A stretch of 64,000 nucleotides of DNA from Escherichia phage LH2. Below are positions 1,412 through 32,750 of this stretch, piece by piece; the stretch's first letter is position 1; each line of letters begins with the position of its first letter. The notes beneath the pieces were generated by a model. It was not told the origin of the DNA. It ran no database searches and worked only from the letters and a program-made list of their open reading frames with translations. The translations under genes were made by a program, and so were the position numbers. The stretch lies in sequence record OQ378934.1; one strand, written 5' to 3'.

Positions 1412-1618
1412 ATGTTTACTACAGCTGAACTAAAACGAGCAAAAGCTAAGAAAGGGCAAGGAAAATATAAAGCTGAATTAGTTAAAGAACTTCAGTTTGC
1501 TGAGGCTGAATTGAATTCAATGATTATTCAAAATGCTCCAGAAACTGAAATTGCTCTTAAACGTATTGCGAATAAGTGTCTTCGTGATGCAATCGTCGAT
1601 CTTTTAGCGGATTATTGA
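1412..1618 (+). CDS. hypothetical small protein (68 aa)
   Basis: Internal ATG at 1412 preceded by ggag RBS and lying downstream of the early promoter; the upstream part of the listed ORF (from 1313) overlaps denB and the promoter. Confidence 0.4.
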   Translation: MFTTAELKRAKAKKGQGKYKAELVKELQFAEAELNSMIIQNAPETEIALKRIANKCLRDAIVDLLADY

Positions 1619-23393: not shown

Positions 23394-24186
<793 letters not shown>

Positions 24187-24187
<1 letters not shown>

Positions 24188-24738
24188 TGAAACAATACCA
24201 ATTTTTAATTAAAGATATCCTGGAAAACGGTTATGAAACCGATGACCGAACAGGCACAGGAACAATTGCTTTGTTCGGTACTAAATTACGCTGGGATTTA
24301 ACTAAAGGTTTTCCTGCAGTAACGACTAAGAAGCTTGCCTGGAAAGCTTGCATTGCTGAGCTCCTTTGGTTTTTATCAGGAAGCACAAATGTTAATGATT
24401 TACGATTAATTCAACACGATTCATTAATTCAAGGCAAAACAGTCTGGGATGAAAATTACGAAAATCAAGCAAAAGATTTAGGATATCATAGCGGTGAACT
24501 TGGTCCAATTTATGGAAAACAGTGGCGTGATTTTGGCGGTGTAGACCAAATTGTAGAAGTTGTTGATCGTATTAAAAAACTGCCAAATGATAGACGTCAA
24601 ATTGTTTCAGCATGGAATCCGGCAGAACTCAAGCAGATGGCATTGCCACCTTGTCATATGTTCTATCAGTTTAATGTGCGTAATGGCTATTTGGATTTGC
24701 AGTGGTATCAACGATCAGTAGATGTTTTCTTGGGTTAA
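24187..24738 (+). CDS. td: thymidylate synthase, exon 1
   Basis: MKQYQFLIKDILENGYETDDRTGTGTIALFG… through …QRSVDVFLG, ending at the canonical td intron 5' splice site (exon ends ...TTGGGT); the listed ORF begins 12 nt upstream at a TTG. Confidence 0.95.
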
Positions 24739-25751
24739 TTTAGGCCTGAGTATAAGGTGACTTATACTTGTAATCTATCTAAACGGGGAACCTCTCTAGT
24801 AGACAATCCCGTGCTAAATTGTAGGACTACCCTTTAATAAATACTTCTATATTTAAAGAGGTATTTATGAAAAGTGGAATTTATCAGATTAAAAATACTT
24901 TAAACAATAAAGTATATGTAGGAAGTGCTAAAGATTTTGAAAAGAGATGGAAGAGGCATTTTAAAGACTTAGAAAAAGGATGCCATTCTTCTATAAAACT
25001 TCAAAGGTCTTTTAACAAACACGGTAATGTGTTTGAATGCTCTATTTTGGAAGAAATTCCATATGAGAAAGATTTGATTATTGAACGAGAAAATTTTTGG
25101 ATTAAAGAGCTTAATTCTAAAATTAATGGATACAATATTGCTGATGCAACGTTTGGTGATACATATTCTGTACATCCATTAAAAGAAGAAATTATTAAGA
25201 AACGCTCTGAAACTGTTAAAGTTAAGATGCTTAAGCTTGGCTCTGATGGTCGGAAAGCTCTTTACGGTAAACCCGGAAGCAAAAATGGGCGTTGGAATCC
25301 AGAAACCCATAAGTTTTGTGAATGTGGGGTTCGTATACAAACTTCTGCTTATACTTGTAGTAAATGCAGAAATCGTTCAGGTGAAAATAATTCATTCTTT
25401 AATCATAAGCATTCAGACAAAACTAAATCTAAAATATCAGAAAAAATGAAAGGTAAAAAGCCTAATAATATTAAAAAGATTTCATGTGATGGGATTATTT
25501 TTGAATGTGCAGCTGATGCAGCTAGATATTTTGAAATTTCATCCGGATTAGTTACTTACCGTGTAAAATCTGATAAGTGGAATTGGTTCTACATAAATGC
25601 CTAACGACTATCCCTTTAGGGAGTAGGGTCAAGTGACTCGAAACGATAGACAACTTGCTTTAGCAAGTTGGAGATATAGTCTGCTCTGCATGGTGACATG
25701 CAGCTGGATATAATTCCGGGATAAGATTAACGACCTTATCTGAACATAATG
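24739..25751 (+). mobile_element. td group I self-splicing intron (1013 nt) carrying the I-TevI gene
   Basis: Intron 5' sequence taatttaggcctgagtataaggtgacttatacttgtaatctatctaaacgggg and 3' end ...ctgaacataatG match the T4 td intron; the exon 1 and exon 2 reading frames join across it. Confidence 0.9.
24867..25604 (+). CDS. intron-encoded GIY-YIG homing endonuclease I-TevI
   Basis: 245-aa [38 protein letters not shown]… with GIY-YIG catalytic domain, zinc finger and C-terminal HTH; length and sequence match I-TevI. Confidence 0.95.
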   Translation: MKSGIYQIKNTLNNKVYVGSAKDFEKRWKRHFKDLEKGCHSSIKLQRSFNKHGNVFECSILEEIPYEKDLIIERENFWIKELNSKINGYNIADATFGDTYSVHPLKEEIIKKRSETVKVKMLKLGSDGRKALYGKPGSKNGRWNPETHKFCECGVRIQTSAYTCSKCRNRSGENNSFFNHKHSDKTKSKISEKMKGKKPNNIKKISCDGIIFECAADAARYFEISSGLVTYRVKSDKWNWFYINA

Positions 25752-26063
25752 CTTCCATTCAACATTGCCTCGTACGCTGCCTTGACGCATATTGTAGCTA
25801 AGATGTGTAATCTTATTCCAGGAGATTTGATATTTTCTGGTGGTAATACTCATATCTATATGAATCACGTAGAACAATGTAAAGAAATTTTACGTCGTGA
25901 ACCTATGGATTTATGTGAATTACAATTAAAATTTCCAGATGAATTTGATGAATGGGGCACAGAATCTCAGGTATTTTGGTTGAGTCAATTCGCAAAGCCA
26001 CATAATTTTGTTCTTAACAACTATGTATCTCATCCGCCAATTAAAGGAAAGATGGCGGTGTAA
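25752..26063 (+). CDS. td: thymidylate synthase, exon 2
   Basis: Continues LPFNIASYAALTHIVAKMCNLIPGDLIFSGGNTHIYMNHVEQ… to …VSHPPIKGKMAV; in frame with exon 1 after intron removal (287 aa total). Confidence 0.9.
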   Translation, partial: LPFNIASYAALTHIVAKMCNLIPGDLIFSGGNTHIYMNHVEQCKEILRREPMDLCELQLKFPDEFDEWGTESQVFWLSQFAKPHNFVLNNYVSHPPIKGKMAV

Positions 26064-26074
26064 TTTTAATTTAA

Positions 26075-26332
26075 TTGAGAGGATATATGATTTTACGATT
26101 TAAGGATACTTCTGGTGTCGTTCTTTTTACACTTCCTAATCCAAGTGAACTGGAAGTTCCAGGGCCAGAACAGCCTATTATCATTTATGGCAAAAAATAT
26201 TATACTCATAAAATGACTCGTGAGTATTTTGATAATAAAATTTCTACAGTTAAAACTTCTTCTGATTGTTATTATGATATTACTGTTTTAACGGAAAAAC
26301 AATATGACGAATGCAGAACTTTAGCAGTATAA
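26075..26332 (+). CDS. hypothetical protein (85 aa)
   Basis: ORF with gagagga RBS between td and nrdA; its last 12 nt overlap the convergent GIY-YIG gene. Confidence 0.5.
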
Positions 26333-27052
26333 ATATGATTCCCAGCAATCTAGAGCGCATCTTTTAGATATAAGTTTTCTGCTTATTCCGGTTTGACGCA
26401 CAGCTTCTGCTATTGTTGGATATTCTACCCCATCTATACTTACTCTTAGATGGGGTTTCTTTTTACCTCTTTGCGAGTCAGAAATTCGTTTTCTAACTTC
26501 ATTGGTATGTGTCTGTCCATAATATGGGTTATTGATGCCTTTCATATTAAGTGCAGCGTTTCTTTCTTGGAACTTTTTGCTTATTTCTATAGCACGATCT
26601 AACCCATAGTGTTCTTCTATAGTTTTACCTTTGATATCTCTAGGTCTACCATGTTTTTGCTTAAGTTCTTCTGGTGATAATTTTGAATTATTATTTTTAA
26701 TTGCATTTGAAATTTTATTAAGGATTTCTTTCTTTCTTGGGTGATGAGATAAGGTATCCCCAAACGATGCGTCTGCTATATTATACCCATTTTCCTTTGA
26801 GTCATATTCATGCATCCAATAATTTTCACGTTCAATAATGATAGATTTTTCGTATGGAAGTTCTTCTATGATTTTACATACGAAAGCATCTTTCCCATGC
26901 TTATTATAAGAACGCTGCAGCTTTATTGAATGATGATTTCCATTATCTAAATCTTTAAAGTGTCGTTTCCATCGTTCTTCAAAATTAATTGCACTTCCTA
27001 TATAGTGCTTATTGGTTTTAGTGTTTATAATAGCATATATTCCAGATTTCAT
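26321..27052 (-). CDS. free-standing GIY-YIG homing endonuclease (I-TevI-like, seg-type)
   Basis: 243-aa [38 protein letters not shown]… whose N-terminal ~95 aa closely parallel I-TevI; C-terminus has NUMOD3-like ([20 protein letters not shown]) and NUMOD1-like HTH ([24 protein letters not shown]) motifs. Confidence 0.85.
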
Positions 27053-29388: not shown

Positions 29389-30981
29389 ATGTGGTTAACT
29401 AAGAATAACGCTATGTTTGATAATATATACAAAAACGGAAAGTTTCTTCCATTTGGAGAAGAAAAACTTAAATCTAGACTAACAGAAGAAGATAAAGCTC
29501 TTCTAACTGATGGAATAGATTTTAAGCTCAATGTGTTCCAAATTATGGAAGGCATTGACATTAACGATCTAAAATGTGCAGTTTGTGGAAATTTCATTTC
29601 TCTGAAAACAGCAAAGAAACGTGTATTTCCAGCAACATGTAGTAAATCCTGCGCAGGGATATTTTTCGCGGATAAGAGAATTCAAAGCCGTGATACAAAT
29701 TTTGGCGGAAAAGAAAAATATAAAAAATATTTGTCTGAACTTCAACACAAAAATTCTTTAGAAAAATATGGAACAACTCATCAAAAAATTTCAAGAAATA
29801 AAAATAGAAAAACTTTAATTGAACGATATGGGGTAACGCATAATTCACAATTAGAAAGTGTGAAAGAAGCGAGAAAAGTTATAGAAAACGGTAAATCAGT
29901 TGATATTCTGCATTCTAGAAAATCTCGCGAAAAATCTAAGAAGACTAAATTAAATTGGACTAAAGAATATAAGGCATCGTTATATTCATCTATAGGAAAA
30001 TCTATTAAAAATAACGGTCATATTAATCATGATATACTAGATAAAATCAATTACAAAATTTCTATAGAAGAACTACAACAATTAGCAAATTGTTCTCGGA
30101 TGACGGCTTATAGAGCTCTTTCATCCAAAGGACTAATTGACGTTCATTATACTCAAAGTTCTATAGAGCAGTTCATTTTAGATCTAGGATTTGATTGCGT
30201 AGAAACTAGAAAAATTATTCCTCCGTATGAATTAGATATTTACATTCCTGAGAAAAAATTGGCTATAGAATACGATGGAATTTATTGGCATTCTAGCGGG
30301 TCAAAGGAAACAGATAAAATTAAAGAAACTTATCATTTGATGAAGACAGAGATGTGTGAAGCACAAGGAATTCAATTACTTCACATCTTCGAAAATGAAT
30401 GGATTGATGATACAAAAAGAGAGATCTGGAAATCCATTATAAAGCATAAATTAGGATTATCAGAAAGAATACCAGCCCGAAAATGCAAAGCACGGTTTGT
30501 TAATAAGGATGAGGCAAAAGAATTTATTAATAAGAATCATCTTCAAGGATTTTGCTCAGGAGCTCATACGTATAAAGGACTTTATTACAATAATGAGTTA
30601 GTTCAAATTATTTCTATCGGTAAATCTAGATATAGCTCAGGTGATGAACTTTTAAGGATGTGTTCAAAATTAGGGGTTTGTGTTGTAGGAGGAGCCTCAA
30701 AATTATTAAAAGGAATTAATTGTCTATCTTATGGCAATCGAAGATGGTGCAGTACATTATCAAATGTTTATGACTCTGTCATGGAATTTAGTCATATCTC
30801 TGAGCCATGTTATTGGTACGTCGATAAAGGAGAGGTATTTCACCGCTCAAGCTATATGAAACATAAGCTTAAAAACAAGCTTAAAAATTATGATGATACA
30901 ATAACTGAAGTAGAAAATTGTTATGCAAATGGTCTTAGAAGAATCTGGGACTGTGGAAATTTAGTTTACAGGACAAAATAA
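29389..30981 (+). CDS. putative free-standing homing endonuclease with Vsr-like PD-(D/E)xK nuclease motif (530 aa)
   Basis: Large AT-rich ORF filling the nrdA-nrdB gap; N-terminal Cys cluster (CAVCGNF…CSKSC), internal KYGTTH/RYGVTH repeats, and a central motif ELDIYIPEKKLAIEYDGIYWHS resembling the Vsr/DUF559 FxDGxxWH endonuclease signature. Confidence 0.55.
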   Translation: MWLTKNNAMFDNIYKNGKFLPFGEEKLKSRLTEEDKALLTDGIDFKLNVFQIMEGIDINDLKCAVCGNFISLKTAKKRVFPATCSKSCAGIFFADKRIQSRDTNFGGKEKYKKYLSELQHKNSLEKYGTTHQKISRNKNRKTLIERYGVTHNSQLESVKEARKVIENGKSVDILHSRKSREKSKKTKLNWTKEYKASLYSSIGKSIKNNGHINHDILDKINYKISIEELQQLANCSRMTAYRALSSKGLIDVHYTQSSIEQFILDLGFDCVETRKIIPPYELDIYIPEKKLAIEYDGIYWHSSGSKETDKIKETYHLMKTEMCEAQGIQLLHIFENEWIDDTKREIWKSIIKHKLGLSERIPARKCKARFVNKDEAKEFINKNHLQGFCSGAHTYKGLYYNNELVQIISIGKSRYSSGDELLRMCSKLGVCVVGGASKLLKGINCLSYGNRRWCSTLSNVYDSVMEFSHISEPCYWYVDKGEVFHRSSYMKHKLKNKLKNYDDTITEVENCYANGLRRIWDCGNLVYRTK

Positions 30982-31656
30982 TGAGTACAGTTTTTAATAC
31001 TAAACAGGTCGATGTTTTAAAAGAACCTATGTTTTTTGGTTCAGGTCTTGGTATTGCGCGTTATGATATTCAACGGCATCGAGTATTTGAAGAACTTATT
31101 GAACGTTCGCTCTCGTTTTTCTGGCGTCCGGAAGAAGTAAACTTGATGATGGATGCTGCACAGTTTAATAAGCTTCCTCAGTATCAACAAAATATTTTTA
31201 CTAATAATCTGAAGTATCAATCATTACTTGATAGTATTCAAGGTCGTGCGCCGTCTGCTGTACTTATGCCATTGCTTTCAGACCCAAGCCTTGATACATG
31301 GGTTGCTACATGGACTTTTAGTGAAACTATTCACAGTCGTTCATATACTCATATCATGCGAAATCTTTATACTGATCCGTCAAAGGTATTTGATGAGATT
31401 GTATTAGATGAAGCTATTATGAAACGCGCTGAATCCATTGGGCGTTATTATGATGATGTTCTGATTAAAACCCGTGAATGGGAAAATGCTAAAGAATTTG
31501 TAGAACTAGCTAAAGAATCTCCTGATGCCGACTTTCGTTTAAACCGAGCTATTAAACAAGAAGCCGAAGCTAAACGTGCTTTAATGAAATCTCTTTATCT
31601 CTGTTTGCACGTTATTAATGCCTTAGAAGCTATTCGTTTTTATGTATCTTTTGCGT
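30981..31656 (+). CDS. nrdB: ribonucleotide reductase small subunit NrdB, exon 1
   Basis: MSTVFNTKQVDVLKEPMFFGSGLGIARYD… to …EAIRFYVSFA; the frame is interrupted by a stop that is removed once the intron is excised. Confidence 0.9.
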
Positions 31657-32247
31657 AAAATGCGCCTTTAAACGGTAACGTTTATCGAAAACTCCTTTAA
31701 TTGCTGGAAAGTCCTTTATAGGAAAACTAGCAGCCAAGGTTTTGCTTGCACCTTTAATTAGTATAATATGATTATACTTTTAAGAGGATGCACAATTGAA
31801 CTATAGAAAAATTTGGATAGATGCTAACGGACCTACCTAAAGATTCTGATGGAAGACCATAAGAAAAGAACATCAGCAAAAACATTAGAAATGGTTAAGA
31901 ATGGGACCCATCCTGCACAAAAAGAAATCACATGTGATTTCTGCGGTCACATTGGTAAAGGTCCTGGATTTTATCTAAAACATAATGACAGATGTAAATT
32001 AAATCCAAATAGAATTCAATTGAATTGTCCATATTGTGATAAGAAAGATTTATCACCATCAACATATAAACGATGGCACGGCGACAATTGCAAAACAAGG
32101 TTCAACGACTAGTCTTCGGACGTAGGGTCAAGCGACTCGAAATGGGGAGAATCCCTCCGGGATTGTGATATAGTCTGGACTGCATGGTAACATGCAGCAG
32201 TTCATAAGAGAACGGGTTGAGAATTAGCGAGCTCAATCGAACATACG
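31657..32247 (+). mobile_element. nrdB group I intron (591 nt) with decayed homing endonuclease ORF
   Basis: Exon 1 ends in T and the intron ends in G (…acatacG|gtacc…), restoring codon TGT and the conserved NrdB junction FAC-TFNFH; size is close to the T4 nrdB intron. Confidence 0.8.
31849..32112 (+). pseudogene. I-TevIII-like endonuclease remnant (87-aa zinc-finger C-terminal fragment)
   Basis: Intron-internal ORF with CxxC…CxxC zinc-finger (CDFCGH…CPYCDKKD) but no HNH catalytic domain; consistent with a deleted I-TevIII. Confidence 0.55.
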
Positions 32248-32750
32248 GTACCTTTAACTTCCACAAAAACATGGAAATCATGGAAGGTAATGCCAAGATT
32301 ATGAAGTTCATTGCTCGTGATGAGCAGCTTCACCTTAAAGGCACTCAATATATTATTCGTCAACTTCAATCCGGTACTGATGGCGATGAATGGGTTAAAA
32401 TTGCTCAAGAGTGTGAACAAGAAGCAGTTGATATTTTCATGGAAGTTAACCGCCAAGAAAAAGATTGGGCAGTTCATTTATTTAAAGATGGCGATGTTCC
32501 TGGATTAAATACAAATAGCATGTGGAGCTTTATTGATTACTTAACTGTATCTCGTATGAAACAGTGTGGTCTTCCATGTCCAATTACCGATGCTCCGGTT
32601 AAACATCCATATCCTTGGATTCGTGAATATCTTAATTCTGATAATGTTCAATCCGCGCCACAAGAAGTAGAACTTTCATCTTACCTTGTAGCACAGATTG
32701 ATAATGATGTTGATGATAAAGTTATGATGAGTTTTAAAAAATATTTTTAA
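32248..32750 (+). CDS. nrdB: ribonucleotide reductase small subunit NrdB, exon 2
   Basis: …TFNFHKNMEIMEGNAKIMKFIARDEQLHLKGTQ… in frame with exon 1 after splicing (392 aa total). Confidence 0.9.

Follow-up and report, generated by a model that had tools for sequence, protein, structure and literature searches.

The td intron of phage T4 and the endonuclease that it encodes, I-TevI, have served as the founding model for self-splicing introns in bacteria and for intron homing, and the linker and DNA-binding domain of I-TevI are used in engineered Tev nucleases. In T4 (NC_000866.4, td at 143235..145112), the intron interrupts the thymidylate synthase gene after the GGT of Gly183, and the endonuclease ORF lies in the P6a loop with its 3′ end forming part of P6a and P6, an overlap noted previously (PMC2988022). 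Upstream of the T4 ORF, a late promoter, an overlapping I-TevI operator and a hairpin that limits translation to late infection have been described (PMC2988022), as have the CAACG motif cleaved by T4 I-TevI and its spacing (PMC5009752).

Here we describe the corresponding element in Escherichia phage LH2 (OQ378934.1). The window analysed is the whole 64,000-nt stretch of DNA, and all coordinates refer to it. The LH2 element is almost certainly an orthologue of the T4 td intron, that is, an IA2-type self-splicing group I intron located between Gly183 and Leu184 of the thymidylate synthase of a Tequatrovirus-type phage. The host gene, the insertion after the GGT of Gly183 and the architecture are those of T4. 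What the sequences show directly is how the element is built, how far it is conserved, that its structure is intact, with compensatory changes in peripheral helices, and that it is patchily distributed among relatives.

Boundaries of the intron and the spliced td product

The td locus is laid out as follows.
24187..26063, + strand: td gene (split), thymidylate synthase
24187..24735, + strand: td exon 1, 183 codons ending GTT TTC TTG GGT (V F L G), from the ORF list aligned to T4
24736..25751, + strand: td group I intron, 1016 nt, starting UAAUUU and ending CAUAAUG with a terminal G
25751, + strand: terminal G of the intron, invariant in all nine homologues
25752..26063, + strand: td exon 2, 103 codons and a stop, starting CTT CCA TTC AAC (L P F N)

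According to the ORF list, the td reading frame opens with the ATG at 24187, meets a TAA stop codon at 24736-24738 directly after GGT, and resumes at 25752. The Pfam profile PF00303 is divided between the two exons with neither gap nor overlap, profile positions 1-175 falling in exon 1 (E = 6.6e-64) and 176-266 in exon 2. When 24187..24735 and 25752..26063 are joined, the product is a thymidylate synthase of 286 aa, 249 of which are identical in the T4 enzyme. The predicted spliced junction reads TTCTTGGGT followed directly by CTTCCATTC, and both the end of exon 1 (TTCTTGGGT) and the end of the intron (CATAATG) are the same in the T4 alignment. A 202-nt query made from both exon ends across this junction gave one ungapped alignment to the uninterrupted td of related phages, including CHD94UKE2, where td is a single 861-nt CDS and the identity to the query is 95.6%. 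As the junction is colinear with uninterrupted td genes, we place the intron at 24736..25751 (1016 nt).

The original prediction held that td is split by a T4-like intron with matching ends, and this is what we see: the insertion is 96% identical to the T4 td intron and has the same boundaries. The interval first proposed, 24739..25751 (1013 nt), is nevertheless 3 nt short at its 5′ end, where the TAA at 24736-24738 forms the first three bases of the intron, and an insertion point given as following codon 184 must be moved, because exon 1 (24187..24735) has 183 codons. The proposed in-frame joining of DVFLG to LPFNIASY holds with the boundary at 24736 and fails with that at 24739, since cutting out 24739..25751 yields GGT TAA CTT and leaves a stop codon in the mRNA.

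At positions 1597..1600 of the closest intronless allele, the td of CHD94UKE2, the sequence is GGGC followed by TTGCC, versus GGGT followed by CTTCC at 24735/25752 in the window. The difference falls exactly on the insertion site; both versions encode Gly-Leu-Pro, and the surrounding 50 nt are identical.

In the GenBank records of many relatives, two ‘thymidylate synthase’ CDSs are annotated around a ‘homing endonuclease’. Such records could be read as containing no intron at all: td would be broken by a free-standing endonuclease gene, and its two parts translated as separate polypeptides. Split genes of this kind are known in T4-like phages (PMC2988022). For LH2 we judge this to be extremely improbable. 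The 131 nt 5′ and the 147 nt 3′ of the endonuclease ORF together make a complete group I core, and these flanks have their orthologues in the T4 intron, whose splicing has been demonstrated. Furthermore, exon 2 is without a ribosome-binding site or start codon of its own, except for an ATG that straddles the intron end. We thus favour a single intron-interrupted gene. The annotation of td should be join(24187..24735, 25752..26063), for one spliced gene whose intron encodes I-TevI, in place of two thymidylate synthase fragments.

Structure of the ribozyme core

The P1-P10 structure was drawn on the LH2 core from the Rfam alignment, the published td structure, and direct complementarity.
24730..24749, + strand: P1, exon UUGGGU (24730-24735) with internal guide GCCUGA (24744-24749), U.G at the splice site
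24742-24743 with 25752-25753, + strand: P10, intron nt 7-8 with exon 2 nt +1/+2, from structure mapping
24750..24827, + strand: 5′ half of the core, from structure mapping and pair counts
24750-24767, + strand: P2 hairpin
24774-24779 with 25645-25650, + strand: P3
24783-24788 with 24807-24812, + strand: P4
24793-24795 with 24801-24803, + strand: P5
24813-24814 with 25599-25600, + strand: P6
24820-24827 with 25586-25593, + strand: P6a
25586..25751, + strand: 3′ half of the core, with a partial Rfam RF00028 match at 25473-25703
25606-25611 with 25676-25681, + strand: P7
25612-25621, + strand: P7.1
25626-25639, + strand: P7.2
25651-25670, + strand: P8
25686-25703, + strand: P9
25704-25719, + strand: P9.1
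25720-25740, + strand: P9.2

Base pairs were counted over nine homologues from four T4-like genera, for 80 pairs in 15 helices. Standard pairs are formed in 98% of cells, a share that falls to 30-43% once the 3′ partners are shifted by 1-3 columns, and none of 500 shuffles reached the observed percentage paired, number of double changes or covariation score. All nine sequences pair fully in P1, and the U24735.G24744 wobble at the 5′ splice site is invariant in all nine homologues. Nine pairs are altered at both positions: P7.2 and P9.2 account for three each, P8 for two and P10 for one. These compensatory changes come from the introns of CF-SP2, ABTNLPp2, EnC07 and PspYZU05, the double change in P10 being that of PspYZU05. 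P3, P4, P5, P6 and P7 are invariant, so covariation neither supports nor contradicts these helices. In helices 12 and 14, a few cells are left unpaired through misalignment of PspYZU05, for which MAFFT set P9.1 one column off and aligned the second copy of a duplicated AAGAUG in P8; by eye, GUUC/GAAC forms there.

A minimum free energy fold of the 277-nt mini-intron (z = -3.56) recovered P2, P4, P5, P6a, P7.2, P8, P9, P9.1 and P9.2. In place of P1, P3 and P7 the single-sequence fold put other long-range pairs, as a pseudoknotted core would lead one to expect, and for these helices it was set aside. Compared to T4, the LH2 core shows four substitutions in 261 aligned nt, and none of them breaks a helix: they lie at intron nt 6 in the P1 loop, in the P7.1 loop, in the P8 loop (where a C-G pair is added), and in P9.2, where a G.U pair becomes A-U.

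A search of the whole window with Rfam at the gathering threshold returned no match to any family. When an E-value threshold was applied to 24600-25900, a match of 38.9 bits to RF00028 (Intron_gpI) was obtained, against a gathering score of 50. Only the P7-P3′-P8-P7′-P9 half is aligned correctly in this match, the 5′ half being forced into ORF sequence. The ORF-less td intron of CE1 (262 nt) scores 73.8 bits with the same model (E = 3.9e-18, model positions 1-253), and its core is exactly nt 1-93 plus nt 849-1016 of the LH2 intron; the td intron of PYps55T scores 66.9 bits. The low score in LH2 is therefore attributed to the 754-nt insertion in the P6a loop (intron nt 94-847), which contains most of the I-TevI gene, and not to a defective core, and we rejected it as evidence against a group I core. 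The covariance-model check suggested alongside the original prediction thus has a divided outcome, in that the raw window formally fails and the identical ORF-less core passes. Weak Rfam matches to other families (snoR66, 30_255, PyrD leader and others) were dismissed as chance, with E = 0.12 to 7.8 and scores far under the gathering scores.

The sub-threshold score on the raw window and the stop codon immediately 3′ of exon 1 could also be taken together as signs of a splicing-defective intron, which would leave td as a pseudogene or permit only a truncated 183-aa fragment. This seems highly improbable, as T4 has the same stop codon, an identical core scores above the Rfam threshold, no helix is disrupted, and both exons are intact and conserved. 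The claim of an intact td group I intron is therefore borne out, by a core identical to that of CE1 and by intact helices with compensatory changes.

From its near-identity to the experimentally characterised T4 element, we infer that the LH2 intron is self-splicing and mobile. Its RNA would fold into the P1-P10 group I core, and an external guanosine would attack after the U of the P1 U.G pair (between 24735 and 24736). The freed exon 1 would then attack after the terminal G (between 25751 and 25752), joining VFLG to LPFN and restoring the 286-aa enzyme.

An extension of P2 and a third P10 pair were also considered, with mixed evidence. The possible third P10 pair would join intron nt 6 (24741) to exon 2 nt +3 (25754). 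These positions are U/U in LH2 and CE1 and G/A in T4 and PspYZU05, and the pair forms in EnC07, CF-SP2, ABTNLPp2, sutha, JE01 and PYps55T. The T4 td intron splices despite its unpaired G/A at this position. The pattern suggests that different intron and exon alleles have recombined, which is the expected outcome of homing with short co-conversion tracts.

I-TevI, its control region and its target site

The endonuclease gene and the sites associated with it are as follows.
24867..25604, + strand: I-TevI gene, 245 aa and a stop, in the P6a loop, from the ORF list
24827..24868, + strand: I-TevI control region, operator/late-promoter-like sequence and hairpin
24835-24843, + strand: operator/late-promoter-like sequence TAATAAATA, identical to T4
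24837-24868, + strand: 12-bp hairpin, -16.2 kcal/mol, z = -4.55
24858-24861, + strand: Shine-Dalgarno sequence GAGG, inside the hairpin
24709..24713, + strand: CAACG, I-TevI cleavage motif, in exon 1, from the sequence

The last codons of the I-TevI gene supply the 3′ strands of P6a (25586-25593) and P6 (25599-25600). Four Pfam modules are carried by the ORF, namely GIY-YIG (PF01541, E = 5.2e-18), the zinc finger I-TevI_ZnF (PF22635, 72 bits, with C151, C153, C164 and C167 all there), NUMOD3, and the C-terminal DNA-binding domain I-TevI_DNA-bd (PF20987, 104 bits), of the type with a minor-groove helix and a helix-turn-helix. The LH2 protein aligns to T4 I-TevI without gaps and is identical at 233 of 245 residues (95%). 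Residues 1-97 are the same as in T4, so all residues of the nuclease domain are retained. Structures matching LH2 I-TevI include PDB 1LN0 and 1MK0, for the nuclease domain, and 1I3J. The crystallised chain of 1MK0 differs only at residue 75 (E in LH2, A in the chain), and the alignment to 1I3J covers residues 130-245 in full and shows eight substitutions. The complete 245-aa I-TevI originally reported is indeed present: its ORF is full length, all four Pfam modules are there, and the catalytic domain does not differ from that of T4.

The twelve substitutions relative to T4 are C100Y, T102V, A119V, P126S, S134G, K152E, I185K, S200N, V210I, D213E, H221Y and K223E. All are in the linker, zinc finger or DNA-binding domain, with seven of the twelve in the DNA-binding domain; K152E falls between the first and second zinc ligands, and the helix-turn-helix region contains H221Y. 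At the codon level, 19 differences from T4 are synonymous and 12 are non-synonymous. K152E, S200N and H221Y are absent from the relatives compared, namely T4, JE01 and sutha.

Upstream of the gene, LH2 is the same as T4 at all positions from CCCTTTAATAAATAC through the ATG, and the predicted hairpin at 24837-24868 buries both GAGG and the AT of that ATG start codon. In exon 1, the top-strand nick position in CAACG precedes the intron insertion site by 23 nt. With CAACG at its native spacing, an intronless version of the LH2 td is a plausible substrate for I-TevI. The exon 2 part of the I-TevI binding site differs from T4 at several synonymous third-codon positions, and matches the operator at 11 of 20 positions in LH2, compared to the 15 of 20 reported for T4.

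Catalysis, regulation and homing in LH2 are extrapolated from experiments on T4, and the scheme below should be read in that light. The P6a loop encodes an I-TevI composed of a GIY-YIG nuclease, a linker, a zinc finger and a helix-turn-helix DNA-binding domain. By analogy with T4, the protein would be made late, from an intron-internal promoter, while in earlier transcripts its ribosome-binding site would be hidden in a hairpin. I-TevI would repress its own expression by binding the operator that overlaps its promoter. In a mixed infection with an intronless relative, it may bind across the empty insertion site and cut at CAACG, 23/25 nt upstream, as it does in T4, after which recombinational double-strand-break repair would copy the intron in.

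The same substitutions, particularly K152E and H221Y, might instead mean that the intron splices and its I-TevI allele is weakened, inactive or retargeted, leaving the element non-mobile or homing into another td variant. Differences from T4 in the primary binding site in exon 2 would suit such a change, and natural ORF-less derivatives show that loss of the endonuclease does occur. We nonetheless think it unlikely. The ORF is full length and free of frameshifts, conservation of the catalytic domain is 100%, all zinc ligands are retained, and the C-terminal domain still gives its 104-bit match to the Pfam model. In addition, synonymous codon changes outnumber non-synonymous ones, and variation in the target is tolerated by I-TevI (PMC5009752).

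We accordingly keep to a functional I-TevI as the preferred reading. The confinement of the substitutions to the linker, zinc finger and DNA-binding domain, with three of them unseen in the compared relatives, does raise the idea of an allele whose preference in DNA binding or spacing has shifted along with the diverged exon 2 sequence of this td lineage. Alternatively, the allele might act with the neighbouring paralogue at 26321..27052. We hold these ideas to be decidedly improbable. If cooperation with the paralogue were real, the td-nrdA interval would be mobilised by two related nucleases. The LH2 allele is of mild value as an example of how the I-TevI linker and DNA-binding domain vary in nature. 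As one more allele among approximately 200 sequenced, the LH2 copy matters little beyond its correct annotation.

Neighbouring elements and distribution of the td intron

Four other elements were observed close to the td intron, within the same 9-kb region. A free-standing GIY-YIG endonuclease gene at 26321..27052 (- strand, 243 aa) is convergent with td and occupies the position of T4 nrdA.1. Its product, which has no zinc finger, shows NUMOD3 motifs and matches the I-TevI DNA-binding domain weakly. Identity to I-TevI is 45% over the full length and about two thirds in the first 100 residues. The gene is rare, being found in approximately 26 phage records at 80% identity or more, and its next-best relatives are I-TevI alleles. 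Homologues are seen in phage N2 (99.6%), beside an ORF-less td intron, and in Klebsiella phage Roth16 (88.9%), abutting an intronless td. In other phages, this paralogue adjoins td genes with full-length introns, ORF-less introns and no intron.

Further downstream, nrdB (30981..32750) is split by a T4-type group I intron at 31657..32247 on the + strand, which is 591 nt long and nearly identical to that of T4. Its ORF (31849..32112, 87 aa) is a truncated I-TevIII remnant. Compared with T4, six nucleotides are missing upstream of the ORF and two from its 5′ part, and one nucleotide is inserted. Predicted splicing at the junction, where GCGT precedes an intron ending in ACG and GTACC follows it, would give an in-frame NrdB of 388 aa. 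The nrdB intron was likewise missed by Rfam at the gathering threshold in the whole window.

Between nrdA and nrdB, where T4 has mobE and nrdB.1, lies a 530-aa ORF (29389..30981, + strand). Its counterpart is annotated as a ‘putative Hef-like homing endonuclease’ in phages N2 and SG1, and the LH2 product gave only a sub-threshold Pfam match (22 bits), to the restriction-endonuclease-like PF18741. On the other side of td, a 68-aa ORF without a Pfam match (23981..24187, + strand) separates frd from td; in T4 the two genes overlap directly, without this ORF. A hypothetical gene of the same size fills the frd-td gap in CE1, PYps55T and sutha, and a larger one is found in JE01, CHD94UKE2, N2 and PspYZU05. 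This varied gene content suggests that the junction is a variable insertion spot.

The td intron itself is 96% identical to the T4 td intron from end to end, at the identical insertion site. In the phage collection, the best full-length match is to phage JE01 (97.0%), while the introns of T4, T6 and RB55 are all approximately 96% identical to that of LH2; no record in the collection matches the full intron at 99% or above. Intron matches occur in 259 phage records, of which approximately 198 hold at least 80% of the intron (E = 0), and td matches occur in 721. A full intron is thus present in roughly a quarter of related phages. Identity of 96% over the whole length of the T4 intron, together with E = 0 in approximately 198 records, rules out a chance match. 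The surrounding 24 kb are 94-96% identical to several Tequatrovirus genomes. Among relatives, td exists in three allele states, with a full-length intron, with an ORF-less intron, or intronless, and their coexistence is as expected of a mobile intron.

At 1016 nt, the LH2 intron is one nucleotide shorter than the 1017 nt in the T4 record NC_000866.4. The missing base, like two adjacent substitutions, falls in the P6a loop immediately ahead of the operator, outside the mini-intron. The td exons that flank it are of the T6/YUEEL01 type, with only 87% protein identity to T4. Other Tequatrovirus td introns (JE01, T6, RB55, YUEEL01 and others) are 1016 nt long, lie at the same site, and are 95-97% identical to that of LH2. 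The ORF-less introns of CE1, PD112, PYps55T, C2-3, HP3 and N2 measure 262-320 nt, having lost 696-754 nt of the I-TevI gene, and their core is identical to that of LH2 in CE1 and PD112 and nearly identical in the rest. More divergent td introns, with approximately 79-85% DNA identity, are found in the Gelderlandvirus phages CF-SP2 and ABTNLPp2, the Karamvirus phage EnC07 and the Jiangsuvirus phage PspYZU05. They share the site and architecture seen in LH2, and contain an I-TevI-like ORF of 245-260 aa.

A GIY-YIG endonuclease in a group I intron of a thymidylate synthase gene is also known from Bacillus mojavensis, where I-BmoI is encoded in the thyA intron (PMC5009752). By description, I-BmoI differs from I-TevI in its insertion site, in the position of the ORF within the intron, and in having no zinc finger. 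Measured against these systems, the td intron of LH2 is already known in kind, and is a new allele only in point differences amounting to a few percent.
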